64,000 bases of DNA from an uncultured Verrucomicrobiota bacterium (GTDB lineage Bacteria > Verrucomicrobiota > Verrucomicrobiia > Limisphaerales > J093), in NCBI GenBank assembly GCA_964568145.1, contig CAZMOZ010000016.1, positions 9,766 to 73,765 of the forward strand. The letters run 5' to 3'. A model generated the notes under the pieces. The model had not been told where the DNA came from, did not search any database, and saw nothing but the letters and a program-made list of their open reading frames with translations. Shown piece by piece: positions 6,753 to 63,200 of the stretch. A program made the position numbers and the translations under genes. Position 1 is the stretch's first letter; every line of letters begins with the position of its first letter.

Positions 6753-8159
6753 ATGACCGCTTTCCGCCTGCTTGCCGGCTTGAGACTGCTCGCCGCCGCG
6801 GGGCTTTGCGCCGGGTCGGCGGCGGCCGCCTCGCCGCCCACCGCCGAATCGCGCTTCCGCGTGGATCTGCCGCCGGCACCGTTCGCCACCGCGCTGCTCA
6901 CCAACTCGCCCTTCGGCATCAACACCGCCCTCGAACCCGGCCAGCCCGATCTCGAAAACCATCTGCAGGCGATGCAGGACCTCGGCATCAAATGGGGCCG
7001 GCAGGACTTCACCTGGCGTAGCATCGAGCGCGCGCCCGGCCGATACCAGTGGCAGGCTTACGACGCCTTGGTGGACAAGCTCCGCGCGCACGGCATCCAG
7101 GTGCTCGGCTGCCTGGCCTACGCGCCGTCCTTTCACAACCCGGCCACCATCGCCGGTGCCGACGCCTACGCGAAATTCGCCGAAGCTGCGGCGCGTCGCT
7201 ACGCCGGGCGGGTGGACCACTGGCAGATCTGGAACGAGCCCAACGGCGGCTTCTGGAAAGGCAGTCCCGAAGATTACGCGCGGCTGCTCGCCGCAGCCGG
7301 ACCGGCCATCCGTTCGGCCAACCGCCAGGCCCGGGTGGTGGCCTTGAACATGGCCTTTTGCGACGTGCTCTGGGCCGGGCGCGTGCTCCGGCAGGTGCCG
7401 GCCGGCGCCTATGACATCGTGGCCTTCCATCCGTACCGCCCGCCGAACGCGCCGGAGGACAAGTTCGACTGGTGGACGCTCGACCAGTACGTCAAAAGCT
7501 GGCACGCGGGCGACCTGCCCACCAATTACGCGCTGGTGAACATGACCTTCCTCGAACAAACCGGTGAACTGGTCCGCCTGCTCCGCCAGCTCGGCGCGCC
7601 CAAGCCGCTGTGGGTCACGGAAATCTGCTGGAACTCGCACATCCACCCGTACGGCACCAGCGAGCTGCGCCAGGCGGACCTGGCCGTGCGCTTCCACGTC
7701 CTCGCCCTCGCCTCGCGGGAGATCGAAAAGGTGTTCTGGTGGACGCTCCGCGACCAGGGCGTGCGGCAGTTCGACCAGGCGGACATGGTGGGCCTGGCGC
7801 GCTTCGATCTTTCGCCCAAGTATGCCTTCGCGGCCTACGCCTGGATGACCCGCCAGCTCGAGGGCAAGCGCTGGGTGCGCAACGACGCCTTCGGCCCGGA
7901 GGTCTTCGCGGTGGCCTTCAACGACGAGGCCCGGAAGGAAGACGTGCTCGTCGCCTGGGCCAATCAGCCCGTGGCCTACATCCGCGTGAACACACCGGAG
8001 GCCGGGCTGACGTTTTACGACGTCTTCGGCGCGCGGCGCTTCGTGGAGCACGATCCCATTCGCACCGGCAGCCTCACCGTGCCAGTGGGCGAAAGTCCGA
8101 TTTACATCGTCGGACCGCAAGGCCTGAAGGCCGCCGTGAAGCCCGCCCCGGGCTGGTGA
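6753..8159 (+). CDS. Secreted glycoside hydrolase, clan GH-A (GH5/GH39-like)
   Basis: Signal peptide MTAFRLLAGLRLLAAAGLCAGSAAAA. Acid/base motif HWQIWNEPN and nucleophile motif LWVTEICW. Start set to in-frame ATG 6753. Confidence 0.75.
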   Translation: MTAFRLLAGLRLLAAAGLCAGSAAAASPPTAESRFRVDLPPAPFATALLTNSPFGINTALEPGQPDLENHLQAMQDLGIKWGRQDFTWRSIERAPGRYQWQAYDALVDKLRAHGIQVLGCLAYAPSFHNPATIAGADAYAKFAEAAARRYAGRVDHWQIWNEPNGGFWKGSPEDYARLLAAAGPAIRSANRQARVVALNMAFCDVLWAGRVLRQVPAGAYDIVAFHPYRPPNAPEDKFDWWTLDQYVKSWHAGDLPTNYALVNMTFLEQTGELVRLLRQLGAPKPLWVTEICWNSHIHPYGTSELRQADLAVRFHVLALASREIEKVFWWTLRDQGVRQFDQADMVGLARFDLSPKYAFAAYAWMTRQLEGKRWVRNDAFGPEVFAVAFNDEARKEDVLVAWANQPVAYIRVNTPEAGLTFYDVFGARRFVEHDPIRTGSLTVPVGESPIYIVGPQGLKAAVKPAPGW

Positions 8160-8203
8160 GGCGTGCCCGGACCGCGACGGCCGGCCGTTGTTCCTCACCA
8201 AAC

Positions 8204-8242
8204 GGGAACCAAGAAGGAACACCAAGGAACACGAATTCGTGG
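8204..8242. repeat. Flank-module repeat (reverse orientation) containing the palindrome CACGAATTCGTG
   Basis: The reverse complement CCACGAATTCGTGTTCCTTGGTGTTCCTTCTTGGTTCCC aligns with CGCGAATTCGTGTCCCCTGGTGTTCATTCGTGGTTCCC at 5227-5264. Confidence 0.7.
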
Positions 8243-8499
8243 AGTCAGTCCCCGGGCAGTCGGCGCGCGGAGCCCGCCAGCCGGTGGGCGCGTCCAGCGC
8301 CTGGCATCGTCAGCAGAGGCCAACTGCCTGCACTAGTCCGAGCAGCCCTGGTTGCTCCACGACGTCCGTGCGACAAGGCGACTAGGAAGAACGCGACCGC
8401 CAGCACAGTCAGCACGGCCTCGCACGTCAACTGGCGCATATTCAAGTTTGCCAGATTCTGCGAGCGAAGTGTAAGGTGTTTCTGGAGCTGGAGCCGGTT

Positions 8500-13004: not shown

Positions 13005-13090
13005 GGGCAGGAGTCAGTGGTCAGTAATCAGTGGTCAGAAGCTGGAAGTCAGCATCTGGCGTCCGGTATCCGGCATCTGCCGTCCGGCAA
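13005..13090. repeat. Word-repeat element (TCAGTAATCAG / GTCAGAAGC / GTATCCGGCATCTG type)
   Basis: GGGCAGGAGTCAGTGGTCAGTAATCAGTGGTCAGAAGCTGGAAGTCAGCATCTGGCGTCCGGTATCCGGCATCTGCCGTCCGGC. Homologous to 35868-35965. Confidence 0.7.
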
Positions 13091-14605: not shown

Positions 14606-15661
14606 TCAATCTCCCGGCGGGCCGGGCTCGGAGGCGGGCCCGGCCGGCGGAGCGTTCTCCGCCGGCGCACGTTGCAGGCCGCGAAGCTGGGAGCGCACCA
14701 GCCGGGCGGTCATCTCCAGCTCGAACTCCGAGATGCCCAGGCTCCGGTGATCCACGCCGAATGCCGTCAGCCAGCGGTCTTCCACCGGCTGGTAGCCCAG
14801 CGCCCGGCAGAGCCGGTGCTCGAGGTCGGCCATGTGCCCGGCGCCATAAAACACGGCCACGGAGGCCGGCGCGGGCCGCCGGGCCAGCGCGGCGCGGGTG
14901 TCCCGCACCACCGCCTCGTTGCGTTCCTCGACCAGCACCCGCAGGAGCCGCTGCAAGCCCGGCGGCAGGCCCGCGATCTGGGTGAGGTCGTTCGGCAACT
15001 GACCCAGCACCTCGATCAGGGCCACCTTCGTGGCCGCTTGCAGTCGCGGGCTCGCAGCCAGCAGGGACACGCCCAGCCGGGCCAGTCCGCCCAGCAGGCC
15101 TTCCCCGCTCATCGCCTGCACCAGCGCGTCGAACTCGACCGCGCCCGCCTGCGGCCGGCTGCCGGGCGCGGGCTGGGCCGGCTCGTTCGTCGTTCCGCCG
15201 AACACACGGGCAAGCTGCTCAAGGCTGAGGTCGCTGTTCCGGAAGTGCGGCCGCTCGTAATTGATGGCGTCGAGCTGGAAGGTCAGCCCCAGCGCGCGCG
15301 CCAAATCCACCTGCAACGAATACCCCTCGTGCCGGACCGGCGGGCCGTCGCCGGAGCGGATGGCCTCGAACAGCACCACCGTCTGCTCGTCCAGGAAGTC
15401 CTGCAACGCCGTGTAGTAATTGCTGGTGCCGATGTGTGTGACCGCGACCAGCCAGAGGTCCGCGCCGCCGCGCCCCCGCACCGGGGCGAGCCGGCGCAAG
15501 GCGACTTCGAGCGCGATCACGCCGTTGGTGTTCTTGAGCGACCGCAGGTAAGGCCGCACGTCGTCCACGCTGGCCGGCTGCGCAGTGGCGGACCAGCCGG
15601 TCAGGCACAAGCCGGCGAGGACGGCTGGCGCAGCCAGGCGTTGGAACATTCCGCGTTTCAT
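14606..15661 (-). CDS. TraB/GumN family protein, secreted
   Basis: Signal peptide MKRGMFQRLAAPAVLAGLCLTGWSATAQ. Motifs WLVAVTHIGTSNYY and VAVFYGAGHMADLEHRL fit TraB/GumN. Confidence 0.65.
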   Translation of the reverse strand: MKRGMFQRLAAPAVLAGLCLTGWSATAQPASVDDVRPYLRSLKNTNGVIALEVALRRLAPVRGRGGADLWLVAVTHIGTSNYYTALQDFLDEQTVVLFEAIRSGDGPPVRHEGYSLQVDLARALGLTFQLDAINYERPHFRNSDLSLEQLARVFGGTTNEPAQPAPGSRPQAGAVEFDALVQAMSGEGLLGGLARLGVSLLAASPRLQAATKVALIEVLGQLPNDLTQIAGLPPGLQRLLRVLVEERNEAVVRDTRAALARRPAPASVAVFYGAGHMADLEHRLCRALGYQPVEDRWLTAFGVDHRSLGISEFELEMTARLVRSQLRGLQRAPAENAPPAGPASEPGPPGD

Positions 15662-16580: not shown

Positions 16581-16620
16581 TGAAGTCCGAAGTCCGAAGC
16601 GGAAGCGAAGCTCGCCGAAG
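16581..16620. repeat. Word repeat (GAAGTCCGAAG type)
   Basis: GTGAAGTCCGAAGTCCGAAGCGGAAGCGAAGCTCGCCGAAG in a 485-bp non-coding gap. Same words as at 49932-49957. Confidence 0.6.
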
Positions 16621-16745
16621 ATGCCCGCGTCGCAGTTCCGCATTGCGCATTCCGCAATGGGAATGCCGGGGCTCGACGGAGTCTCGCCCCACCCCGTCAA
16701 GAACGGACCGGCACAAAGGTGAGATGCGCCCGCCCGGCAAACGGT

Positions 16746-29354: not shown

Positions 29355-29432
29355 GAAATCCAAATCCGAAGTTCCAAGTTCCAGATTCAAAGTCCCAAGC
29401 CCAAGTCCAGAGTCCACAGACCTCGAGCGGTT
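29355..29432. repeat. Word repeat (CCAAGT / AGTCCACAG type)
   Basis: GGAAATCCAAATCCGAAGTTCCAAGTTCCAGATTCAAAGTCCCAAGCCCAAGTCCAGAGTCCACAGACC. Shares GAGTCCACAG words with the reverse complement of 37301-37335. Confidence 0.6.
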
Positions 29433-35846: not shown

Positions 35847-35867
35847 GCCGCGGGTGGGAGGCCGGGA

Positions 35868-35965
35868 GGCAGTATTCAGTAATCAGTAATCAGGAGCCAG
35901 TAGTCAGAAGCCAGGAGCCAGAATCCAGTATCCGGCATCTGGCATTCGCCTTCCGATCCTTCCCA
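35868..35965. repeat. Word-repeat element homologous to 13005-13090
   Basis: GGAGGCAGTATTCAGTAATCAGTAATCAGGAGCCAGTAGTCAGAAGCCAGGAGCCAGAATCCAGTATCCGGCATCTGGCATTCGCC. Confidence 0.7.
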
Positions 35966-36963: not shown

Positions 36964-37070
36964 GGCTGGTGCCCAGCCTCGGTATAGCCAACCACGCGTC
37001 GGTTCAACCTGAATTCCGAACTTCGGCAGGCGCGCCGCGTTCTGACGAACACCGTCACGCGGGCGGCTGG

Positions 37071-37130
37071 CCAGAAGACAGAAGGCGGCATCTGGCATCT
37101 GGAATCTGGCATCCGCCGTCCGCCATCCAG
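37071..37130. repeat. Word repeat (GGCATCTGG type)
   Basis: CCAGAAGACAGAAGGCGGCATCTGGCATCTGGAATCTGGCATCCGCCGTCCGCC. Imperfect inverted partner at 37265-37300. Confidence 0.65.
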
Positions 37131-37141
37131 GGCGCGGCCGC

Positions 37142-38464
37142 TCAACCAAACATCCGCTTGAGCCGCCAGGCGTCGTAGGCCGCACGCTGGGCGGGGGTCA
37201 TCTTCGCGAAGTCCGGCGCGCCATCGGCCCGCACCGGCCAGGCGGGGGCGGGCTCGGCGGATCCCGGATGCCTGATCCCGGATGCCGGATGCCGGATGCC
37301 AAGGGGACTGTGGACTCGGGACTGTGGACTCGGAACTTCGCCTTCGCGTCCGGCCAGCGGGTTGTTCCGCACTTCGACGCTTGTCCGCGACCCACCGCCA
37401 TAGCTCATGGCCTGGTCGGTCAGTTCGAGGTCTTTTTCCAGCGGGCGATGCGGCTTGAGGCCCTTGCCTTGCAGAACCCCGTGGTAGGCCCGCACCGCCT
37501 CTTCGGGCGTGACGCGGCCGTCGGTGATGAGCCGCAGCATCTCGATGAACGCGAGCTGGTGTTCAGCGTGGTTGATCTTGCGGCCGAACAGCGCCACGCG
37601 CGCGCCGTACTTCTGCGCGTCGTGGATGAGCTGGAAGGCGTCGTAGGTCGTGCCCGCGCCGCCGCCGAGGACGCCGACCACCATGTTCGGGTCGTACTGG
37701 CAGAGCTCCTCGAGCGCGCGCGGCCCGTGATAGACGATCTTCAGGAACAACGGCCGCCCGGCCTCCGGCACGCCGGCCAGCGTCCGCAGGATGTTGTCAT
37801 TGATGAACTCGCCGAGCTTCTCCGCCGGGATGCCGCTGGCCACGTTCGGGTCGAAGACCTCGAGGAAGTGGCGGAACTGCTTCCGCTCGGCCTCTTCGCG
37901 AAATTCCTTGTAGGCAAGGAGTGTCTGGCGGTCCTGTTCGAGGTCGTTGACCCAGGTGACGCTGTACAGGCCGAGGTTGGCGCCGGGGAAGTCGTCCGAA
38001 CTACGGTCGCACTCGACCCGCCCGCACTGGATCTGGTCAATGCTCGCGCTGCGGAAAGGCTGCGCCGGCTCCCGCGTGTAGCTGCCGTGGCGGGCGGCCC
38101 AGACGTCGGTGGTGTCGTTGGCGCGGGCGGCGGGCGTGACCGGCGACTCGCGGAACAGGCCTTCCTGGATGGTCAGCACGTCGTTCACGTAAGCCGACAT
38201 CAACATGATGTCCACCAGGCCCTGCTGGGTGACTTCGCGGATGATGTCGAGGAACTCGGGCAGGTTGCGGTAGCCGAATTCCTCGCGCGTCCAGACCTCG
38301 GGCGAGAACTGGGCGGGCCGCGCGCCCCGGGCGGACAGATACGACCGCGGCCCTGGCGCGCGCACGCCGAAGGCCATGTCCGCGTCCTTGGCGTCGGCGA
38401 GGATGAACGCGCGGGACCGCGGGTTGGCGCGAATCTCGGCAAGCTTGGCGTCGAGGGATTTCAT
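37142..38464 (-). CDS. Conserved hypothetical protein, possibly aldolase-type TIM barrel, with a repeat-encoded insertion near the C-terminus
   Basis: 440-aa ORF. FILADAKDADM, IMLMSAYVND, FLKIVYHG and VGVLGGGAGTTYDAFQLIHDAQKYGARVALFGRKIN resemble DeoC/FbaB/DUF2090-type class I aldolase folds; this is a weak match by eye. Residues SPQSRVHSPLGIRHPASGIRHPGS are encoded by the word repeat at 37261-37340. Confidence 0.6.
   Translation of the reverse strand: MKSLDAKLAEIRANPRSRAFILADAKDADMAFGVRAPGPRSYLSARGARPAQFSPEVWTREEFGYRNLPEFLDIIREVTQQGLVDIMLMSAYVNDVLTIQEGLFRESPVTPAARANDTTDVWAARHGSYTREPAQPFRSASIDQIQCGRVECDRSSDDFPGANLGLYSVTWVNDLEQDRQTLLAYKEFREEAERKQFRHFLEVFDPNVASGIPAEKLGEFINDNILRTLAGVPEAGRPLFLKIVYHGPRALEELCQYDPNMVVGVLGGGAGTTYDAFQLIHDAQKYGARVALFGRKINHAEHQLAFIEMLRLITDGRVTPEEAVRAYHGVLQGKGLKPHRPLEKDLELTDQAMSYGGGSRTSVEVRNNPLAGREGEVPSPQSRVHSPLGIRHPASGIRHPGSAEPAPAWPVRADGAPDFAKMTPAQRAAYDAWRLKRMFG
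37261..37340. repeat. Word repeat lying inside a coding region (CGGATGCC x4, GGACTGTGGACTCGG x2)
   Basis: ATCCCGGATGCCTGATCCCGGATGCCGGATGCCGGATGCCAAGGGGACTGTGGACTCGGGACTGTGGACTCGGAACTTCG. Confidence 0.7.
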
Positions 38465-38831: not shown

Positions 38832-39110
38832 GTGTCCATGGACAATAACGCAGCATCCCCGGTGATCGCGGTGCGCTGCTGGATCGAAGGCCGGCGCGTC
38901 TGGCTCGAGCTGGGCGACCAGCGATTGGTCAGCTTTCCCGCCGCAAAGTATCCGCGGCTGGCCAATGCCAGCGAGGAAGCGCTGGCCCAGGTGCGGCTCC
39001 GTGTCGGCGGCCGGGCCCTGCGGTGGGAGAACCTCGATGAGGACATCTGGGTGGAAGACGCGGTGCTGGGCCGTTTTCCCCGGTCCAAGACCGAGACGAT
39101 CTCCGCGTAG
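38832..39110 (+). CDS. DUF2442 domain protein
   Basis: VIAVRCWIEGRRVWLELGDQRLVSFPAAKYPRLANASEEALAQVRL..GGRALRWENLDEDIWVE fits DUF2442. Starts 5 nt after the DUF4160 stop. Confidence 0.7.
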   Translation: MSMDNNAASPVIAVRCWIEGRRVWLELGDQRLVSFPAAKYPRLANASEEALAQVRLRVGGRALRWENLDEDIWVEDAVLGRFPRSKTETISA

Positions 39111-39133
39111 CCCGGTTCCAGCCGCATGATGCC

Positions 39134-40820: not shown

Positions 40821-41123
40821 TCATGCGAAAGGGCTGTAAAACACCTCGTCAATGAGCGCGGTGTTGATGGCGTCCACCGGCGTGGGCTGGGGAAACGGCT
40901 GGGCGGCCTCGCGGCCTTCGATGTAGCCGATTACGTCGCCCACGCCCCCGCCCAGATTGTCATAAACCACGAGGCTGGGATCCTTGCTGAGCGTGATGGG
41001 CGACGCGCCGGCCTTCGGGAAATGCTCGCGGGTGAACGGGCTCACCAGCAGCCAGCGCCCGCCCGTGAACGGCGGGATGGTGCGGTTCAGCGTCACGCGG
41101 CCGATGACGGTGCCGAGTTTCAT
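40821..41123 (-). CDS. BMC vertex protein (BMC-P; EutN/CcmL family)
   Basis: MKLGTVIGRVTLNRTIPPFTGGRWLLVSP...LVVYDNLGGGVGDVIGYIEGREA. ATGA overlap with the upstream BMC-P gene. Confidence 0.85.
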   Translation of the reverse strand: MKLGTVIGRVTLNRTIPPFTGGRWLLVSPFTREHFPKAGASPITLSKDPSLVVYDNLGGGVGDVIGYIEGREAAQPFPQPTPVDAINTALIDEVFYSPFA

Positions 41124-41458
41124 GACGAGGGGCGGGGAGCGGGCGGCGGGGGGCGGTTCAGCCCGCCCGCCGAATCCTGGAGTGCGGTTGTCCCCGGTGT
41201 GACTTCGTCCACGATGCCGATGATCATCCAGCGCGCGGGGCTCTGGTCGTCGCCCACCGCCCGGCGGGCGGCCAGGCCGTCGCTGGAGAGGATGACCCGC
41301 TGGTGCAGGCCGGCGCCGAGGGCGTCGAGGGCGACGAGCGGTGCGGCTTCCGGCTGGCCGTCGCGGCCGATCGGCTGGCAGATGATCAGCCGCCAGCCGG
41401 CGAAGCTGGGGTGCTTGCGGGTGGCCGTGACATTGCCTTCGACGCGGGCGAGCAACAT
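41120..41458 (-). CDS. BMC vertex protein (BMC-P; EutN/CcmL family)
   Basis: MLLARVEGNVTATRKHPSFAGWRLIICQP...VALDALGAGLHQRVILSSDG...MIIGIVDEV. Confidence 0.88.
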   Translation of the reverse strand: MLLARVEGNVTATRKHPSFAGWRLIICQPIGRDGQPEAAPLVALDALGAGLHQRVILSSDGLAARRAVGDDQSPARWMIIGIVDEVTPGTTALQDSAGGLNRPPPPAPRPSS

Positions 41459-41460
41459 GG

Positions 41461-41492
41461 AACTTAGAAGTCAGGAGTTGGAAGCTAGAATG
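41461..41492. repeat. Left arm of the inverted repeat bracketing the four-helix-bundle ORF
   Basis: AACTTAGAAGTCAGGAGTTG-GAAGCTAGAATG. The last 12 nt (41481-41492) are the exact reverse complement of 41834-41845. Confidence 0.8.
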
Positions 41493-41836
41493 CGCGCGGA
41501 GTAACCGTGGAGGAGGCGGCCGACCTCATCGTACAAAGTCAACAACTCGCTGCTGTCGCCGTAACCGAGATCTTTCGCGAGTAGAAGGTAATAATGGCTC
41601 TCCTCCAAGGAACCTTGGGCAATGTTAAAGAACCGGGCCTTGTCGTTGGCACCACGCTTAGGAAATCCCTCGGCAATGTTTGCCGCGATGGACACGGCCG
41701 CACGGCGCAGTTGTGACGTCAGTCCAAAGCGTTCTTCCGATGAAAATCCCTGAGTGAAACGATACACCGCCAGCACAAATTGGTGCGCTTTCCGCCAAAC
41801 TACCAGATCCTGAAAGCTGCGTGCCGGTGTGCTCAT
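41471..41836 (-). CDS. Four-helix-bundle protein (23S rRNA intervening-sequence protein / Avd-like family)
   Basis: FQDLVVWRKAHQFVLAVYRFTQGF..EERFGLTSQLRRAAVSIAANIAEGF.KR...DKARFFNIAQGSLEESHYYLLLAKDLGY is the canonical family signature. Confidence 0.88.
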   Translation of the reverse strand: MSTPARSFQDLVVWRKAHQFVLAVYRFTQGFSSEERFGLTSQLRRAAVSIAANIAEGFPKRGANDKARFFNIAQGSLEESHYYLLLAKDLGYGDSSELLTLYDEVGRLLHGYSARILASNS

Positions 41837-41870
41837 TCTAGCTTCTCACTTCTAACTCCTCGCTCCTCAG
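41834..41870. repeat. Right arm of the inverted repeat bracketing the four-helix-bundle ORF
   Basis: CATTCTAGCTTC-TCACTTCTAACTCCTCGCTCCTCAG. The first three bases are the complement of the ORF start codon. Confidence 0.8.
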
Positions 41871-43357
41871 AAGATCCGCAGATTGTCCACCATCACGCAC
41901 CGCCGCACGCGCGTGAAGGTGCGCGGATTGCAGATGCCTTCGCCGGTGGTGGTGGCGATGGAGAAGTTCGGGTAGCCCTCGCCGCCGCTCCCTAGGCCCG
42001 CCAGGCACGAGCCGTTTTTGATGAACAGCGTCGTCTCCAGCGCCTTCGCCATGGCCGTCATGTGCGCGACGTTGTGCGAGTGGATCATCGCCGAGTGCCG
42101 GTAGCCGTGCTCGGCTTTCTTCGCCAGCGCGATGCCTTCCTCCACCGTCTTCACCCTCACGACCGGCAGGAACGGCATCATCTGCTCCTCCTCGACGAAG
42201 AGATGGTCTGCGGCGGTTTCGGCGAACAGGAGCTGGGTGCCGGCCGGGACGCTGGCGCCAGCCGCGGCAGCCAGCACGGCCGGGTCTTTGCCAATCAACT
42301 CGCGGTTGACCACCGGATGCGGGCAGCCGCCGCCCTGGCCGGGCGGGAACACGAAGGCGGCCTTCGCCAGCCGCTCGACCTGGGCGTCGCCCAGCCGCAC
42401 GGCGCCATGTTTCTCGAGCGCGCTCACGAACGGCTGGAACACCTCCTCGAGCACGAACACCTCCTTCTCGCCGATGCACAGCAGGTTGTTGTCGTAGGCC
42501 GCGCCGAAGACGACGTTGCGCGCCGCGCGGTCCAGGTCGGCGGTGTCGTCCACCAGCACGGGCGGGTTGCCGGGGCCGGCGCAGATGGCGCGCTTGCCGG
42601 TCTGCATGGCGGCCTTGACCACGCCCGGGCCGCCGGTCACGCAGAGCAGGCGGACGAATTCGCTCTGGGCGATCGCGTTGAAGGATTCGAGCGTGGGCTG
42701 CTCGATGACGCAGGCGAGGTTCTCGATGCCGAGTTCGGCGTGGATGGCCTCGTTGATGACGCGCAGGGCGGTGACGGCGCACTTCGCCGCGCCGGGATGC
42801 ACGTTGAAGACCACGGCGTTGCCGGCGGCGGCCATGCTGATGATGTTGCACGCCGCGGTGGGAATCGAGTGCGTGCTGGGCGTGACCGCGCCGATCACGC
42901 CCACCGGCGCGTACTCCTCGAGCGTGATGCCGTGGTCGCCGCTCAGGCCGTACGGCTGGAGAAACTCGACGCCGGGAATCGCCCGCTGGCCCTTGAGCTT
43001 TTCGATCTTGTGGTCGAGCCGGCCGATCTTGGTTTCCTCCAGCTCGATGCGCGCCCACGGCACGGCGTTGAAGTCGCACAGGCGCTTCACGATCTCGACC
43101 ACCTTCGCGCGGCCCGCGACGCCTTGCCCGGATAACTGGAGGTATGCTTCGTGCGCGGCGGCGCAGGCCGCCTGGGCATCCTGAAAGACGCCGAACGTGC
43201 CGCGACGCGCGGCGCTGGAGGGCTTGGCCGGGGTCGGGCAGTTGCAGGCCGGGCGGGCGTCTGGCGCCGCCGGCCTGGCGGGTGCCGGCGCGCCGCCGAG
43301 GCGGCCCAGCACTTCGCTGACGATGTCACGGATCAAGGCTTCATTGACGGTGCTCAT
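41867..43357 (-). CDS. CoA-acylating aldehyde dehydrogenase (PduP/EutE family) with N-terminal encapsulation-peptide-like helix
   Basis: AICAGPGNPPVLVDDTADL and NNLLCIGEKEVFV (catalytic Cys). N-terminus MSTVNEALIRDIVSEVLGRLGG followed by a Pro/Ala linker. Confidence 0.9.
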   Translation of the reverse strand: MSTVNEALIRDIVSEVLGRLGGAPAPARPAAPDARPACNCPTPAKPSSAARRGTFGVFQDAQAACAAAHEAYLQLSGQGVAGRAKVVEIVKRLCDFNAVPWARIELEETKIGRLDHKIEKLKGQRAIPGVEFLQPYGLSGDHGITLEEYAPVGVIGAVTPSTHSIPTAACNIISMAAAGNAVVFNVHPGAAKCAVTALRVINEAIHAELGIENLACVIEQPTLESFNAIAQSEFVRLLCVTGGPGVVKAAMQTGKRAICAGPGNPPVLVDDTADLDRAARNVVFGAAYDNNLLCIGEKEVFVLEEVFQPFVSALEKHGAVRLGDAQVERLAKAAFVFPPGQGGGCPHPVVNRELIGKDPAVLAAAAGASVPAGTQLLFAETAADHLFVEEEQMMPFLPVVRVKTVEEGIALAKKAEHGYRHSAMIHSHNVAHMTAMAKALETTLFIKNGSCLAGLGSGGEGYPNFSIATTTGEGICNPRTFTRVRRCVMVDNLRIF

Positions 43358-43430: not shown

Positions 43431-43748
43431 TCAGGCTTGGGTCCTGGCGCTGTAGATCACCCGGCCCAGCACGTCCACGGTGTCCACGATACCGATGATG
43501 ACGGCATCCACGGGCGCCTCCTTGAGGCCGGGCGCGAGGCGGGCGCTGCTGCCCTGGCAGAACATCACCAGCTCCCCAAGCCCGGCGCCCACCGTGTCCA
43601 CGGCCACGATGGTGTTCACGCCGGGGCGGAACCGGGTGGGGTCCTTGTCGTCCACCAGCAGGGGCCGGAGCAAAAGCAGCTTGCGGCCGCTCATGGCCGC
43701 GTCCTTCTTGGTGGCGACCACCGCGCCTTCGACCTTGGCGAGGAACAT
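43431..43748 (-). CDS. BMC vertex protein (BMC-P; EutN/CcmL family)
   Basis: MFLAKVEGAVVATKKDAAMSGRKLLLLRPL...VAVDTVGAGLGELVMFCQGSSAR...VIIGIVDTVDV. Confidence 0.88.
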   Translation of the reverse strand: MFLAKVEGAVVATKKDAAMSGRKLLLLRPLLVDDKDPTRFRPGVNTIVAVDTVGAGLGELVMFCQGSSARLAPGLKEAPVDAVIIGIVDTVDVLGRVIYSARTQA

Positions 43749-43754
43749 GATGGG

Positions 43755-43838
43755 GGAGAATTCAGGAGCCAGGAGCTAGAAGCTGGAATGTCGCTCTGAC
43801 GGACACAGTCCTAACTCCTAACTCCTCACTTCCAGCTA
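43755..43838. repeat. Intergenic word-repeat hairpin (ORF-less relative of the 41461/41870 element)
   Basis: GGAGAATTCAGGAGCCAGGAGCTAGAAGCTGGAATG...TCCTAACTCCTAACTCCTCACTTCCAGCTAC. Core inverted repeat AGCTGGAA (43781-43788) / TTCCAGCT (43830-43837), which overlaps the BMC-H stop codon. Confidence 0.7.
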
Positions 43839-44117
43839 CTTCTTCTTCGGCAACACCGCGTCCACGTCCGGGTGCGGGCGCGGGATGACATGGACACTGA
43901 CCAGCTCGCCCTGAATGGCCTTCACGGCCTGGGCGCCGGCGTCCACGGCGGCTTTGACCGCCGCGACGTCGCCCACGACGACGGCCGTGACCAGGGCGTT
44001 GCCGACCTGGGTCATCGGGCCGGCGAGTTCAACGTTCGCGGCCTTGAGCATCGCGTCCGTGCCCTCGACGAGGGCGACCAGACCGCGGGTTTCGAGGAGT
44101 CCAATGGCTTGAGGCAT
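43836..44117 (-). CDS. BMC shell hexamer protein (BMC-H, Pfam BMC domain)
   Basis: MPQAIGLLETRGLVALVEGTDAMLKAANVEL...[20 protein letters not shown]...VHVIPRPH. Confidence 0.93.
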   Translation of the reverse strand: MPQAIGLLETRGLVALVEGTDAMLKAANVELAGPMTQVGNALVTAVVVGDVAAVKAAVDAGAQAVKAIQGELVSVHVIPRPHPDVDAVLPKKK

Positions 44118-44154: not shown

Positions 44155-45345
44155 TTAAGTCGCGGATTTTTCCAGAAAACGTTTCACTTCGCGTGCCACC
44201 ACGAGTTCTTCGTTGGTGGGAATGACCATGACCTTCGCGGCGCAATTGGGCGGGCTGAGAACGGCTTCCTGCGCCCGGGCGGCGGTGTTTTTCACGGGGT
44301 CGAGGGCCAGGCCGAGCGGTTCGAGGTCGGCGCAAACGGCGGCGCGGATTTCGGGGCGGTTTTCGCCAATGCCGGCGGTGAAGACCAGGGCATCCAAGCC
44401 GCCCAGTTCGACCAGGTAGGCACCCAGCCAGCGGCGGATTTCGTGGACGAAAAAGTCCAGGGTGGCGCGGGCGCGGGGATGGCCCTGGTCGGCGGCGGCC
44501 TGGATGTCGCGGAGGTCGTTGGAGACGCCACTGACGCCCTTGAGGCCGGCTTCGCGGCAGAGCTGGCGTTCGACTTCCGCCAGGCTCAGGCCCAGGGTGC
44601 ACATGACCCAGGGCACGGCCATGGCGTCGAGGTCACCCACGCGGTTGTTGTGGGGCAGGCCGGATTGCGGGCTTAAACCGAGGCTGTTGCCGATGGCCAC
44701 GCCGTTGCGGATGCCGGCCAAGCTGGAGCTGCCGCCGAGGTGGCAGGAGATGACCCGCAGCGCGGGTTCGCGCACCGGCGTGGCGCCGCTGTTTACGTAC
44801 AAGTCGCGCACGCGCGCAGCCACGTCGGGCCGGCCCAAGAGTTCGGCGGAGCGCTCGGCGATGTACTTGTGGCTCGCGCCGTGGAAGCCCCAGCGGCGCA
44901 CGCCGGCTTCATGCCACGCCGCCGGCACGCCATAGCGCGTCGCGGCGTCCGGCATCCACTGGTAGAACGCAGTCTCGAACAGCCCGACCAGCGGCACCGA
45001 GGGCAGGCGCCGGGCGAAAAGGCGGATGCCGGCGATGTAAGGCGGGTTGTGAGCCGGCGCGATGGCGTTGTAGGCCTCCATCGCCTGCACGACCGGCTCG
45101 TCCAGCCGCACGCAACCGGTGAGGCCGCGGGCCAGGACGGTCTTGAAGCCCACGGCCGCGAGATCCCGGCCGCTGGCGATGTGACCGGCCTGCTGAAGCT
45201 GGCCCAGGCAATCTTCGATCGCCTGCGAATGATCGCTCACCCGCTCGAAGCCGCCCCTGTGCAGCAGGCGCTCGCCGTCGCCGGCAAAATCGAACAGCCG
45301 CCACTTCAGTGACGTGCTGCCGAGATTGGCGACGAGGATTTTCAC
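44155..45345 (-). CDS. ackA: Acetate (acyl) kinase
   Basis: (GTG)KILVANLGSTSLKWRLFDF...FHGASHKY...CHLGGSSS...VFTAGIGEN. Confidence 0.92.
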   Translation of the reverse strand: MKILVANLGSTSLKWRLFDFAGDGERLLHRGGFERVSDHSQAIEDCLGQLQQAGHIASGRDLAAVGFKTVLARGLTGCVRLDEPVVQAMEAYNAIAPAHNPPYIAGIRLFARRLPSVPLVGLFETAFYQWMPDAATRYGVPAAWHEAGVRRWGFHGASHKYIAERSAELLGRPDVAARVRDLYVNSGATPVREPALRVISCHLGGSSSLAGIRNGVAIGNSLGLSPQSGLPHNNRVGDLDAMAVPWVMCTLGLSLAEVERQLCREAGLKGVSGVSNDLRDIQAAADQGHPRARATLDFFVHEIRRWLGAYLVELGGLDALVFTAGIGENRPEIRAAVCADLEPLGLALDPVKNTAARAQEAVLSPPNCAAKVMVIPTNEELVVAREVKRFLEKSAT

Positions 45346-45439: not shown

Positions 45440-45718
45440 TCACTGGAGCCACTTGCCCAGTCCGCTCAGGCCTTCGTGCGGCCGCGGGATGACCTGGACG
45501 CTGACGACCTGGCCCACCTGGGCGGCGGCCGCGGCGCCGGCGTCGGTGGCGGCCTTGACCGCCGCCACGTCGCCCCGGAAAAAGGAGGTGACATAGCCGC
45601 TGCCGATCTTCTCCCAGCCGACGAGGGTGACGTTGGCGGCCTTGAGCGCGGCATCGCTCGCCTCGAGCAGCGCGCACAGGCCCTTGGTTTCAATCATGCC
45701 GAGTGCTTGAGTTGCCAT
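45440..45718 (-). CDS. BMC shell hexamer protein (BMC-H)
   Basis: [61 protein letters not shown]...VIPRPH. Confidence 0.93.
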
Positions 45719-45761: not shown

Positions 45762-46058
45762 TTACTTCGCGGGCTTGGGCGGTGCGTTCTCGCCGAGGAA
45801 CGACTTGAGCAGATCCTCGTGCGGCCGGGCGATGATGTGCGAACTGATGAGTTCGCCCACCTTGCCGGCGGCCTTGGCGCCGGCGTCCACGGCGGCTTTG
45901 ACGCTGCCGACGTCGCCTTTGCAGAGGACGGTGATCATGCCCCCGCCGATGGGGATGGTTTTGACGAGGCTGACGTTGGCGGCCTTGACCATTGCGTCGC
46001 TGGCTTCCACCGAGCCGACGTAGCCTTTGGTTTCGATCATTCCGAGTGCTTCGCTCAT
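45762..46058 (-). CDS. BMC shell hexamer protein (BMC-H)
   Basis: [60 protein letters not shown]...IIARPH. Confidence 0.93.
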
Positions 46059-46061
46059 GAT

Positions 46062-46128
46062 TTTCAGGTGTTGGGAGTTGGAAGTTAGAATCTAGAATCC
46101 AGCCAGGAACCAGAAGTCAGCGGGCGTG
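46062..46128. repeat. Intergenic word repeat (direct, purine-rich on the plus strand)
   Basis: TTTTCAGGTGTTGGGAGTTGGAAGTTAGAATCTAGAATCCAGCCAGGAACCAGAAGTCAGC. Confidence 0.6.
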
Positions 46129-46130
46129 GT

Positions 46131-46808
46131 TCACTTCACCAGTTCGCAGGGCGTGTTGGGTTGCAGGTTGCAGGCGTTGCCTTCGTCCGTGTCTATGTGG
46201 ACCTCCAGCTTGAAGCTCGGATCCACGCGCACGAGCATCTGTTCGAGCGTGAGCGCGCACGGCCCGCCGACATTGAGCCTCATCGCGTCGCCTTGCTTCA
46301 CGCCATAGAACGCCGCGTCGTCCGGGTGCATGTGTACGTGTCGCAAGGCCCGGATCACGCCTTCCTTCATTTCGAAGAAGCCCGCCGGCCCCATCAACAT
46401 GCAGCCCGGGGTGCCCTTGATGTTCCCGGAAAGCCGCAGCGGGATTTCAAAGCCCAAGGCGATGGCGTCGGTGTACGCCAGCTCCACCTGATTGAGTGTG
46501 CGGCACGGGCCGAGGATGCGCAGGTTCGAGATGACCCGGCTGCGCGGGCCGATCAAGGTGACGGTTTCCTTCGCGGCAAACTGGCCTTCTTGGTAAAGCC
46601 ACTTGTGAACCTGAAGCTGACGCCCCTTGCCGAACAAGGCCTCCACCGCCTCGGGTGTCAGATGGCAATGCCGCGCGCTGACGTTGACGACCAACGGGTT
46701 CGGCGCCGTCGCCAGCCGCGGCAAGGGCTTGCCCAACCGCTGGTAAACCACCTGACGAACCAAGTGCTCGACCACCGCCCGGGGCAAAGATTGCTGCGGC
46801 ATTGCCAT
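46131..46808 (-). CDS. pduL: Phosphate acyltransferase PduL
   Basis: Two PduL repeats, VVNVSARHCHLTPEAVEALFG and IRALRHVHMHPDDAAFYG, plus LEVHIDTDEGNA. N-terminal amphipathic helix AVVEHLVRQVVYQRL. Confidence 0.9.
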   Translation of the reverse strand: MAMPQQSLPRAVVEHLVRQVVYQRLGKPLPRLATAPNPLVVNVSARHCHLTPEAVEALFGKGRQLQVHKWLYQEGQFAAKETVTLIGPRSRVISNLRILGPCRTLNQVELAYTDAIALGFEIPLRLSGNIKGTPGCMLMGPAGFFEMKEGVIRALRHVHMHPDDAAFYGVKQGDAMRLNVGGPCALTLEQMLVRVDPSFKLEVHIDTDEGNACNLQPNTPCELVK

Positions 46809-49864: not shown

Positions 49865-49931
49865 GCGGGCCTGCCGGTGCGGCTATCCGCACCAATGCGC
49901 TGTAATTTGGAATTCAGGAAGGTGGGAAAAC

Positions 49932-50086
49932 GAAGTCCGAAGTCCGAAGTCCGAAGGTTGAAAGCCGGCAACCGGCATCGGGCATCCGTCTTTCCCGAAC
50001 TGCGCACCTTGAACCTCAAACCCTTGAAGGAGGTTCGCCCTGCCGGCACAGGGTTGCAGATTTTGAATTTCGGACTTTGGACTTCA
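49932..50086. repeat. Long-range inverted word repeat (GAAGTCCGAAG type)
   Basis: GAAGTCCGAAGTCCGAAGTCCGAAGG (49932-49957) against TTCGGACTTTGGACTTC (50069-50085), about 110-nt spacer. Confidence 0.7.
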
Positions 50087-60263: not shown

Positions 60264-63200
60264 TCCATCCCGTCCTGCAAGCACGGTTGCGACCCGCCGC
60301 GCGACGCCTGGCGCGACGCGCCTTCTGGTGGCGGCTGGCGGCCGGCTGGGCCGCGGCCGCCGCGCTCGGAGCGACGGTATGGGCGGGCCAGCGGCTCAGC
60401 GGTTGGAGTTCTTCGCTGGCCTGGGTGGTCGCGGCCGGGCTCGGCGTGGTCGTCGCGGGCTGGTTCGCCGCGCGCGGCCGGCGTCATCGCCACGACTGGC
60501 GCGCGCTGGCCGCGCGCATCGAGGCGGCGCACCCCGAACTGGAGGGCCGTCTGCTCACGGCGGTCGAGCAGGACGCCGTGACACTGCATGGGCTGGGCTT
60601 CTTGCAGCAACGCGTCGTCTTCGAGGCCTGCGATCACGCGCAGCGGAACAACTGGCGCCGTAGCGTGCCGTGGTGGGGCTTGCCGCTGGCGCACGCGGCG
60701 CACGTCGTGGCGCTCGCCGCCTTTCTCGTGGTGGTCTGGAGTCTGCGCAGCACCGCCCCGCCCACGCTCCTGGCCGCCCCGCCGGCGCGGGGTCTCACGG
60801 TGACGCCGGGCGACCTCGAGCTCGAACGCGGCCACAGCTTGGTGGTGCTGGCGCGTTTCGGCGGTTTGGTCCCGGCCTCGGCCGACCTGGTGCTTCGCGA
60901 GCCGGGCGCGCCGGAACGCCGCCTGGCGATGACCCGCAGCCTGAACGACCCGCTCTTCGGCGGCAGCGTGGCGGAGGTGACCAACCACCTGACCTACCGC
61001 GTCGAGTACCCCGGCGGCCGCTCGCGGGAATTCACCGTCATGGTCTTCGAGCATCCGCGGCTGGTGGGCGCGGACGCCGATCTCGCGTTCCCCGCCTTCA
61101 CCGCGCTGCCGCCAAAGCGCATTCCCGACACGCGCCGCGTCACGGCCGTGGAAGGCACGCGGGTCACGTTGGCCTTGAGCCTGAACAAGCCCGTGAAGGC
61201 GGCGCGGCTCGTGCCGAAAGACCCGGCCGCCGCGGTCGTGCCGCTGACGCTGGCGAGCAACCAGCCCGCCGCGACGCTGGACGGCTTCACCCTCCAGGCC
61301 AGCCAGACTTACGACCTCCGGCTCGAGGACGCCGACGGCCGCACGAACAAGGAGCCGGCCACGTTCACCTTCAGCGCGCTCCCGAACCGCACGCCCGAGT
61401 TGCGGCTCACCTCGCCGCGCGGCGATCTCCGCCCGTCGCCGATCGAGGAAATCGCCTTCGCCGGCACGGTCTGGGACGACTTCGGCGTGCTGGCCTACGG
61501 CGTGGCACATTTGCGGCCCGGCGACGACCCAGTGTGGATCGAACTCGGCCGCGACACGCCCGGCCGCGAGAAACACGCCTTCAGCCACCTGTTGCGGCTG
61601 GAGGAACTCGCGCTCCAGCCCGAGGACCTGTTGTCCTGGTTCGTCTGGGCCGAGGACCTCGGGCCGGACGGCGAACCGCGCCGCACCACCGGCGACCTGT
61701 TCTTCGGCGAGGTGCGGCCGTTCGACGAAATCTTCCGCGAAGGCGAGGGCATGGCCGGCGGCCAGCAGGCTCAGCAAGGCGGCGAACAGGAGGGCAGTCC
61801 CTCGGCGCAACTGGCGGAGTTGCAGAAACAGATCATGAGCGCCACCTGGAAGCTGCTGCGCGACCAGCCGGCGGCCCGGAACCGCGCGCGGTCTTCACAG
61901 GTCGCGCCCGTGGGTTCGCCGCAATCGTTCGCGCCCAGCCGGCCGGCGGGCCACACCGGACCGCGCAACCTCGTCTTCGGCCGGCCGGACTTCATGGCCC
62001 AGCGCGCGACCGTGCGGCCCGCCCCGGCGCGCCCGCCGACGCCCGCCGCCGACACGGGGAATCGTCGCGAGGCGCCCAAGCCGGGCGACGATCTGGGCGT
62101 GGTGCGCGACGCGCAGGAACAGGCGTTGGAGCAGGCTCACGAGGCGGGCGCCGAGGTCGCGGACCCGCGGCTGGCGGCGCTTTGGGAAACCGCGCAACAA
62201 GCCATGCAGGCCGCGCTCGAAAAACTCGAGGCGGCCGGCAAATCGCCGGAGGCCTTGCTCGAGGCCTTCGCCGCGCAGCAGACGGCGTATCAGGCGCTGC
62301 TCAAGCTCCAGGAGCGCGAGTACGCGGTGTCGCGCGGCCGCAACCAGCAGGGTCAGCGCGGCGGCGGTTCCCGCCAGCAACAAATGCAGCGCCAGCTTGA
62401 CCAGCTCGAGCTCACCCAGTCCGAAAACCGTTACGCCACGGAAAGCCGGGCCCAGGCGCCGGACTCGCCCGAGCGCCGCGAGCAGTTGCAGACCTTGAAC
62501 CGCCTGCGCGAACTCGCCCGCCGCCAGCAGGACCTCAACGAGCGGTTGCGCGAACTCCAGACCGCCCTCGAGGAGGCGCGCACCCCGGCCGAGCGCGAGG
62601 CCATCCGCCGCGAACTCAAGCGGCTTCAGGAACAGGAGCAGCAGGTCCTGGCGGACATGGATGAACTCCAGCAACGTCTCGACCGGCCGGAAAACCAGTC
62701 CCGGCTGGGCGAGACCCGCCAGCAGCTCGAGCAGACCCGGCAGGACGTGCAGCGCGCGGCCGAGGCGCTCGGGGAGGGCGCGGTGTCCCAGGCGCTCGCC
62801 GCCGGCTCGCGCGCCCAGGACCAGATGGAACGGATGCGCGAGGATTTGCGGCGCGCCAGCGCGGGCGAGTTCGCCGAGGAACTGCGCGAACTTCGCGCCG
62901 GCGCCCGCGAACTGACGCGCGAGCAGGAAGCGCTGGCCCGGCAACTGGACGCGCTGAGCGATCCCGGCCGCCGCACCTTGAGCGACGCCGAGGCGCGCCA
63001 GGAACTGCTCGACCGGCTGGCGCAGCAAAAGCAACGGCTGACCAACGTGCTCGGCCAGGCCACCGCCTTGTCCGAGCAAACCGAGGAGGCCGAGCCGCTC
63101 GTGTCGCGCCAGCTTTACGACACCTTGCGCCGGTTCAGCCAGGACGACGCCGTGCAGATGAAACAGATGCGCCAGGAGTTGCTCGAGCGCGGCCTGCTCA

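Follow-up and report, generated by a model that had tools for sequence, protein, structure and literature searches.

A small open reading frame (ORF), bracketed by an inverted repeat, lies between two genes of a microcompartment (BMC) operon, and this locus raises the question of what kind of element the ORF and its repeats make up. The operon is of the PVM type and is found on the minus strand of a 64,000-nucleotide (nt) stretch from an uncultured Verrucomicrobiota bacterium (contig CAZMOZ010000016.1), which is called the window in the following. The ORF encodes a four-helix-bundle protein of 121 amino acids (aa) and stands between the aldehyde dehydrogenase gene and a BMC-P shell gene. ORF-containing intervening sequences are known from the 23S rRNA of Coxiella burnetii, Leptospira and Xanthomonas. 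With a probability of about 60%, we take the element of the window for a cassette of this intervening-sequence type that resides in an mRNA, where it is transcribed by read-through, looped out by a stem, translated by coupling and offers a plausible site for RNase III.

The identity of the 121-aa ORF was clear from profile searches. It matched PF05635 at residues 9-109 with an E-value of 2.4e-34 and 118 bits (cut-off 33.8), and TIGR02436 with 114 bits (cut-off 24). The nearest solved relative was 2GSC (Xanthomonas XCC0516; E 1.3e-20 over residues 6-98), a four-helix bundle that forms a homopentamer (PMC4990558). Of the 8,000 candidates that were scored, 7,987 were relatives at E <= 1e-5, which is a lower bound for their number. 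The 64-kb window holds no second PF05635-type gene, and the viral contigs that were searched contained no relative. The window belongs to a metagenome contig of 171 kb (JGI 3300037465). Its G+C content is 68%, and the close orthologues of its aldehyde dehydrogenase all came from metagenome-assembled genomes of Verrucomicrobiota. The G+C content at third codon positions (GC3) was 0.61 in the ORF as compared to 0.92 and 0.90 in the flanking genes; it was below that of the flanking genes in 29 of 29 loci, with a mean difference of -0.19 from the dehydrogenase. Within the clade of ORFs at the BMC site, the ratio of nonsynonymous to synonymous divergence (dN/dS) had a median of about 0.09, which shows, as judged from codon divergence, that the cassette protein is under strong purifying selection.

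The inverted repeat around the ORF was as the original prediction had described it. A perfect 12-nt sequence, GAAGCTAGAATG, faces its reverse complement CATTCTAGCTTC, and these two are the only exact copies in the 64 kb. When up to two mismatches were allowed, 6 matches were found versus 1.5 expected, and all of 100 shuffles gave fewer than 6. With 80% complementarity, the repeat can be followed over 30 nt, and it has several pairing registers. The purine and pyrimidine words seen earlier in the arms are tandem heptamers of the form NNAGRAG, about five in each arm. The 5' arm consists of five in-phase words and ends with ..CTAGAATG; the first three bases of its first word are the stop codon TGA of the dehydrogenase gene, and its last word includes the ATG of the cassette ORF. 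The tail ..ILASNS and the stop codon of the ORF (41471-41473) are encoded in the 3' arm, which is separated from the ATG of BMC-P by 1 nt. The predicted overlap of the arms with the start codon and with the codons for ..ILAS was confirmed. Together, the arms span exactly the distance from the dehydrogenase stop codon to the BMC-P start codon. Only pyrimidine-rich arm sequence precedes the BMC-P ATG, with no purine-rich Shine-Dalgarno-like stretch. The same geometry was observed in related loci, where the dehydrogenase stop is followed by the cassette ATG after 28-40 nt, the cassette stop by the BMC-P ATG after 12 nt (16 of 21 loci), and most arms have five to six words.

The folding of the minus-strand RNA was calculated for the region 41440-41890 (451 nt). 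The arms paired in both the minimum-energy and the centroid structure, in agreement with the hairpin originally proposed. The z-score of the whole region was only -1.0, because the ORF dominates it, whereas a construct of the arms alone reached -45.2 kcal/mol and a z-score of -7.2, and none of 200 shuffles was as good. In this construct, a stem of about 29 base pairs (bp) includes the perfect 12-nt repeat. At its base GGAGC pairs with GUUCC, with UGA immediately on the 5' side and AUG immediately on the 3' side. Folded as DNA, the 12-bp core alone was stable. No promoter-like or terminator-like site was detected at the cassette, and the counts of terminator-like sites across the region were at chance level. 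An intrinsic terminator was dismissed, since there is no G+C-rich hairpin with a T run and ATGTTGC directly follows the 3' arm. No Rfam family, those of rRNA included, was found in the window or in six related loci.

The dehydrogenase/BMC-P spacer was measurable in 76 species-representative BMC loci of Verrucomicrobiota (given L numbers; L001 is that of the window). It had 30 nt or less in 49 of them (typically 2-20 nt, e.g. TGATG or TGAGCCATG), and in 20 it held an insert of 31-250 nt with no ORF detected. Four spacers contained a close relative of the 121-aa ORF, one (L051) a divergent TIGR02436 ORF with CCGAAATC-type arms, and one (L057) an IS200-type Y1 transposase gene; the remaining one is L001 with its cassette. 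The junction is therefore usually without an ORF elsewhere, and the ORF is not universal at this position, as the comparison suggested in the original prediction was meant to reveal. Many of the 31-250 nt inserts were hairpins of inverted tandem words of 7-10 nt, the word varying by genome, and a few were ordinary hairpins or unstructured. Empty sites were non-palindromic stop-start junctions of 2-6 nt. As a side observation, most junctions of the BMC operons (L002-L081) had spacers of 31-250 nt in over half of the loci. Short spacers prevailed at the dehydrogenase/BMC-P and BMC-P/BMC-P junctions, and many of those inspected at the former were array hairpins.

A hidden Markov model of the subfamily, run over 80 BMC loci, matched in L001, L002, L005, L021 and L071 only; it missed the divergent copy in L051, which was found by inspection of the long spacer. 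A scan of metagenomes added 24 loci with ORFs 69-79% identical to that of the window. Their upstream flank was the C-terminus of the dehydrogenase, the downstream flank was the start of BMC-P in most, and most had heptamer arms. These scans for related loci used peptide seeds and favour close relatives. The cassette was in sense orientation in all BMC-site loci with readable flanks.

In a tree of the dehydrogenase, occupied sites were interleaved with empty and hairpin-only sister loci. The clearest pair was L014 and L089, whose BMC-P proteins are 98% identical. L014 is empty and reads ..TTTTAG CCT ATG, whereas L089 is filled and reads ..TTC TGAGGAG....TCTAAAT CCT ATG, a clean insert that replaces a few bases between the stop codon and CCTATG. 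Related genomes differ in whether they have the cassette at this single junction. The divergence of cassette and host gene was weakly correlated (r 0.40-0.46). Between L089 and L103, dN was 0.286 for the dehydrogenase and 0.045 for the cassette, and L002 and L005 had the closest dehydrogenase and the most divergent ORF. Probably, a long-standing cassette lineage is specific to this junction and has been lost and regained or exchanged between BMC loci by way of the conserved flanks.

The type of the heptamer word was then compared with the protein. In the BMC clade 65% of the words were T-AGRAG, and in the other clades, including the cyanobacterial one, 74-90% were C-AGRAG. More distant proteins went with other words: CCGAAATC in L051, AGAGGAC in Azospirillum, GACAGAT in Coxiella and AAAAGCT in Pseudanabaena. 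Because the word type follows the protein clade and not the host site, the arms travel with the ORF, and at the level of sequence this shows that ORF and arms are inherited together. The original prediction had proposed a minimal mobile cassette that targets palindromic spacers. Its outline was supported by the patchy presence, the clean empty sites, the GC3 deficit, the discordant trees and the occurrence in other phyla. The targeting was not, since the empty sites have no palindrome and the word type goes with the protein, which argues against an insertion into pre-existing hairpins. In L033, L050 and L064, however, ORF-less hairpins of the same words occur in the opposite orientation.

The design was also searched for in other genomic contexts. 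Duplex energy was dropped as a measure of arm pairing, as it was confounded by G+C content and control ORFs in G+C-rich contigs scored as well. It was replaced by a composition-independent alignment score of flank complementarity with 572 control ORFs. By this score, the 99th percentile of the controls was exceeded at the BMC site in 21 of 28 loci and elsewhere in 12 of 24. In these 24 metagenome loci the gene usually stood between co-oriented genes; the upstream ORF ended 10-58 nt before the ATG in 15 and the downstream ORF started 16-58 nt after the stop in 13. On cyanobacterial plasmids, proteins 58-66% identical to the window ORF were encoded in Nostoc punctiforme (pNPUN02, positions 15234-15599), Aulosira laxa, Trichormus variabilis ATCC 29413 (plasmid C, positions 60378-60743) and Picosynechococcus PCC 7003, and all those examined were at co-oriented operon junctions. 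Their arms were inverted TCAGGAG/TCAGAAG arrays, with related GGAG-containing words in Picosynechococcus, and the arms-only stems had -36 to -62 kcal/mol. The Trichormus cassette shares its gene string with a TrbI/VirB10 gene. That of Picosynechococcus (L171) lies between cas10/cmr2 and cmr3, and distant members in Pseudanabaena (L174) and Anabaena sp. 90 (L175) lie between cas6 and cas4. The PF05635 family is listed among CRISPR-associated domains (PMC10910872); this reported association may reflect insertion of cassettes rather than function.

In Azospirillum lipoferum 4B, an ORF 43% identical to that of the window is located inside a 23S rRNA gene. Heptamer arrays of AGAGGAC on one side and, inverted, GTCCTCT on the other enclose it and can pair into a stem of about 33 bp. 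The Coxiella intervening sequence has three tandem GACAGAT heptamers, followed by GACAGAA-TG at the ORF start, and a 28-bp terminal stem; RNase III cleaves at the first heptamer, and the ORF appears untranslated and decaying while the stem persists (PMC4990558). Other four-helix-bundle genes are hence bracketed alike, also within 23S rRNA, and the ORF-in-a-helix-loop architecture that had been predicted for the window is that of the rRNA elements. In the open-access literature we found no description of the PF05635 family outside rRNA beyond annotation tables. The sequence comparisons suggest that the rRNA elements are a single example of a more general design, which extends across Verrucomicrobiota BMC operons, cyanobacterial CRISPR and conjugation operons and soil bacteria.

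How closely does the window cassette resemble the rRNA intervening sequences? Both encode a PF05635/TIGR02436 protein within the loop of a long terminal-repeat stem, both have tandem heptamers that are purine-rich upstream and of which the last one leads into the start codon, and both have no promoter of their own and are carried on a highly transcribed host RNA. The differences are that the host RNA in the window is an mRNA at a BMC stop-start junction instead of a 23S rRNA helix, and that the window ORF is strongly constrained and placed for translational coupling, in contrast to the ORF of Coxiella, which is described as decaying and untranslated. Given the anatomy common to the BMC operons, cyanobacteria, Azospirillum and Coxiella, the window element would therefore be of the same kind as the ORF-containing rRNA intervening sequence.

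From these features the following mechanism is proposed. The unit comprises the PF05635 gene and two inverted arrays of about five heptamer words. It is inserted in sense orientation exactly between the operon stop and start codons, and because it has neither promoter nor terminator of its own it would be co-transcribed with the operon. In the transcript, the arms would pair and the stem would loop the insert out. The base of the stem would bring the UGA of the dehydrogenase beside the AUG of BMC-P and so recreate the ancestral stop-start junction. A ribosome that terminates at the dehydrogenase stop in the first word of the 5' arm would melt the outer stem and expose Shine-Dalgarno-like words and the cassette AUG. 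Having translated the ORF, it would stop 12 nt before the BMC-P AUG and could reinitiate there. Through such translational coupling, the insert might be expressed while the operon stays intact. The stem would also be a plausible substrate of RNase III, by analogy to the rRNA elements, for which excision by this enzyme has been shown. Candidate routes for the movement of the cassette are homologous exchange between BMC loci via the conserved flanks, or an enzyme acting in trans.

Several results weigh against this interpretation. No compensatory covariation was found in the arms: an arm paired with its own partner at 25.9 of 35 positions and with that of another locus at 25.8 (permutation p 0.44). 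Likewise, G-U pairs (82) were not favoured over A-C mismatches (102), the difference being not significant. It is thus the words that are conserved, and they could be so as protein-binding sites or DNA-level signals rather than as an RNA helix. The pairing of the arms may be selected, or it may simply follow from inverted arrays of one word family. Some distant members are flanked by direct instead of inverted arrays (L174, L172). Translational coupling and RNase III cleavage are steps that we infer. Concerning mobility, no transposase was seen at the window element and no target-site duplication when the empty L014 was compared with the filled L089. The trees were built by neighbour-joining and carry no support values. 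All BMC-site ORFs form one protein clade distinct from that of the other contexts, which also fits a single ancient acquisition with vertical descent and repeated loss. Synonymous sites were saturated between the window ORF and every sampled relative, so that no recent transfer into the window genome can be shown.

The conservation of the words leads to the main rival of the cassette reading. In an iteron-like manner, the arrays may be binding sites, on DNA or RNA, of the pentameric four-helix-bundle protein, with the hairpin as a by-product of the inversion; the protein would regulate, protect or help to propagate its own cassette and the ORF-less arrays. We consider this rather unlikely, although it would account for words that are conserved without covariation and without the wobble signature of a sense RNA, for a word type that tracks the protein clade within the subfamily as well as in distant relatives, and for the direct-repeat flanks, which binding sites explain and a stem does not. 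Five to six words per arm would also suit the homopentamer of 2GSC, but the match of five words to five subunits is numerology. A Nostoc study postulates an unidentified protein partner of heptamer repeats near start codons, and the related protein Avd is an accessory nucleic-acid-handling protein of retroelements (PMC10053308). The binding itself is a prediction, however, and ORF-less arrays of many word types stand in the window beside one such gene in 64 kb. In addition, the Coxiella stem persists although its ORF appears untranslated and decaying (PMC4990558). Avd, which works with the reverse transcriptase of diversity-generating retroelements, shares the four-helix-bundle fold and a distant similarity with the window protein (PF22296 E 5e-4; NF033474 E 2e-3). 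Membership in the Avd family was rejected with scores far below the curated cut-offs (bAvd 21 versus 40 bits, NF033474 18 versus 80 bits). No reverse-transcriptase Pfam was present in the genes called up to 10 kb away in both directions; template and variable repeats were not searched for.

That the single clade reflects a resident accessory gene, acquired once by an ancestral Verrucomicrobiota BMC operon, inherited vertically and repeatedly lost, with the repeats as an ordinary hairpin for translation or RNA stability and no mobility, appears unlikely to us. The strong purifying selection, the conserved geometry and the uniform sense orientation would be expected of such a gene, and its mean pairwise divergence of 73% equals that of the dehydrogenase. 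On the other hand, the empty sites are clean and identical to outgroup junctions, so each loss would have had to be exact. Neither the weak divergence correlation with its exceptions (L089/L103, L002/L005) nor the GC3 deficit in every locus agrees with a resident gene, and operons for CRISPR, conjugation and other functions, as well as rRNA, contain cassettes of identical design. Even less can be said for arms of the REP (repetitive extragenic palindromic) type, moved in trans by an IS200-like tyrosine transposase (RAYT), in which case the ORF would be trapped DNA and the ORF-less hairpins the ordinary form. REPIN/RAYT biology is established (PMC3116915), and REPIN and REP sequences are likewise short intergenic hairpins, repeated in the genome, found in either orientation between operon genes and present or absent among relatives. 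The Y1 transposase gene of L057 occupies the very same spacer beside a repeat-array arm, ORF-less array hairpins in either orientation are found at many junctions of these operons, and a GxxExxY (PDDEXK_3) ORF is bracketed by the array family seen beside that transposase. This reading is nevertheless highly improbable: a tblastn search found no Y1 transposase in the 64-kb window, and the transposase-associated arrays are CACGAATGGA decamers, another word family than the ORF-flanking heptamers. A single arm consists of tandem 7-nt words rather than a palindrome, and its ends, read by eye without a formal pattern search, show no GTAG/CGTC, the classical REP tag (PMC3733652). The gene between inverted REPIN copies is a transposase, whereas that of the window encodes a small four-helix-bundle protein for which no catalytic activity is known, and a word type that follows the protein clade across phyla would not be expected of a randomly trapped ORF.

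Three further systems were compared. A transposon or miniature inverted-repeat transposable element with terminal inverted repeats was set aside as no flank is duplicated in the L014/L089 comparison, and an integron cassette as the repeats flank the ORF and do not form a single 3' recombination site. The free-standing homing-endonuclease genes of phages (intronless homing) resemble the cassette in their precise insertion between conserved genes, their variable presence, gene trees discordant with the flanks and host genes that are mosaic around the insertion point. They differ in that the 121-aa ORF has no nuclease domain; the sister cassettes with a GxxExxY protein of the PD-(D/E)XK fold might fit the homing model better.

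These sister cassettes are a second kind of hairpin cassette, observed at other junctions of the same BMC operons. Their GxxExxY/PDDEXK_3 ORFs matched TIGR04256 with E-values of 7e-23 (L057 copy) and 3e-16 (L081 copy), and their arms are inverted decamer arrays, ACCACGAATGGACACCAATGG.. facing ..ATTCGTGTCC..CGTGGTT. In L162, the closest relative of the window, one is located between PTAC and the first BMC-H gene. Of the arm type around this L162 cassette, the window has retained no more than the start, TGAACCACG, at the corresponding junction, where a one-armed heptamer array follows. The IS200-like transposase of L057 (PF01797, E 1e-25) has an arm of the CACGGATGGA family on its left, and in L060, L074 and L081 the same words form hairpins without an ORF, so that some array hairpins may be REPIN-like. 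A repeated element of about 2.16 kb was also noticed, with copies in L109, L116, L117, L120, L121, L123, L125, L130-L133 and others that are 85-99.9% identical between contigs with different flanks. It encodes a 551-aa protein together with a divergently oriented four-helix-bundle gene that keeps the 3' heptamer arm only. The 551-aa protein had no match in Pfam, NCBIfam or PDB; its homologues are multi-copy 'hypothetical proteins' on plasmids of Rhodococcus, Burkholderia and Mycobacterium. Hairpins are found close to both ends of the element, but a clear terminal inverted repeat is not, and it may represent an undescribed insertion-sequence family. None of the PADLOC defence models matched the 121-aa ORF, the GxxExxY protein or the 551-aa protein.

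The features of the window and of these relatives are collected in Table 1. The related element without an ORF that had been noted one gene upstream was confirmed, between BMC-H and BMC-P. A second ORF-less hairpin, at the BMC-H/acetate kinase junction, includes the tandem repeat CTTCTAA 4.7 times, and L162 has hairpins at both of these junctions. Two of the three hairpin elements of the window are directly downstream of BMC-H shell genes. REP hairpins stabilise upstream mRNA segments, and the hairpins after the BMC-H genes could likewise protect the mRNA upstream of them at its 3' end. Further tandem heptamer arrays in the window are of the types CAGTAAT/CAGAAGC, GTCAGTG, CGAAGTC/CCGGCAT and others, some of which grade into each other. 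They are mostly single and without a strong hairpin, and tandem words of seven bases are abundant in the genome. At the 3' end of a 440-aa ORF, inverted CCGGCAT/GGATGCC heptamer arrays surround about 170 nt, and the C-terminal ..SPLGIRHPASGIRHPGS.. of this ORF is a translated array; the L162 counterpart has 423 aa. It may be that the end of this gene is inserted DNA, or that a repeat hairpin was read through when the gene was called. Finally, a DUF2442 and DUF4160 gene pair lies in the opposite orientation at the junction of the aldolase gene with the next operon gene. As L162 has a GxxExxY cassette there instead, this junction is also variable.

Table 1. Location of the features discussed, in window coordinates or, where an L number is given, in those of the respective locus
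Feature	Position	Strand	Remarks
PTAC	46131-46808	-	BMC operon
One-armed heptamer array, pyrimidine-rich on the mRNA, upstream of the first BMC-H	46074-46120	-	sequence
BMC-H (first)	45762-46058	-	BMC operon
BMC-H	45440-45718	-	BMC operon
ORF-less hairpin, AGAAGTC AGAAGTT AGAAGTT.. facing ..CTCCTAA CTCCTAA	45346-45439	-	z -2.9
Acetate kinase	44155-45345	-	BMC operon
BMC-H	43836-44117	-	BMC operon
ORF-less hairpin, same heptamer word family	43749-43835	-	-39.4 kcal/mol, z -3.8
BMC-P	43431-43748	-	BMC operon
Aldehyde dehydrogenase, upstream host gene	41867-43357	-	PF00171; 80 orthologous loci
5' arm on the mRNA, TGAGGAG CGAGGAG TTAGAAG TGAGAAG CTAGAAT-G	41834-41869	-	sequence, word phasing, pairing
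Right copy of the 12-nt inverted repeat, CATTCTAGCTTC	41834-41845	+	sequence
Four-helix-bundle ORF, 121 aa, cassette cargo	41471-41836	-	PF05635, TIGR02436, 2GSC matches
Left copy of the 12-nt inverted repeat, GAAGCTAGAATG	41481-41492	+	sequence
3' arm on the mRNA, CATTCTAG CTTCCAA CTCCTGA CTTCTAA GTTCC	41459-41492	-	sequence, fold
BMC-P (EutN/CcmL), downstream host gene	41120-41458	-	PF03319
BMC-P	40821-41123	-	BMC operon
Class II aldolase	downstream of the BMC-P genes	-	BMC operon
DUF2442 and DUF4160 gene pair	38832-39127 (L001:12727-13147)	+	
440-aa ORF	37142-38464		
Inverted CCGGCAT/GGATGCC arrays	37070-37350	-	
Further tandem heptamer arrays	35865-35945; 13008-13070; 49931-49988; 29359-29415; 16582-16656		
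GxxExxY cassettes	L162:1322-1696 and 8099-8485; L057:5556-6000; L081:5553-6000		window counterpart 46059-46130
IS200-like Y1 transposase	L057:7849-8295		dehydrogenase/BMC-P spacer
Repeated element of about 2.16 kb	L117:2272-4431		

The annotation 'four helix bundle protein' is very widespread and has had no explanation, and the family owes its name to a few intervening sequences of rRNA. Our results give it a common genomic anatomy: a gene without a promoter, inverted heptamer arrays and an exact slot between stop and start codon. They offer a neutral explanation for its co-occurrence with CRISPR-Cas genes, link it to the unexplained heptamer repeats of cyanobacteria and point to culturable carriers. 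In the BMC operons, the dehydrogenase/BMC-P junction and other spacers emerge as hot spots of hairpin elements, by which the ratio of shell to enzyme could be altered. As a tentative and rather doubtful extension, the PF05635-family genes and the heptamer arrays may form one cross-phylum system, in which each protein clade recognises its own word and the cassettes colonise operon stop-start junctions and the tips of rRNA helices and leave ORF-less arrays behind. If this were true, the heptamer repeats at start codons in cyanobacteria and elsewhere would be footprints of one class of mobile cassettes, and the statistical association of the family with CRISPR-Cas and other operons would come from the same footprints. 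The cassette protein would then be the missing heptamer-binding factor.

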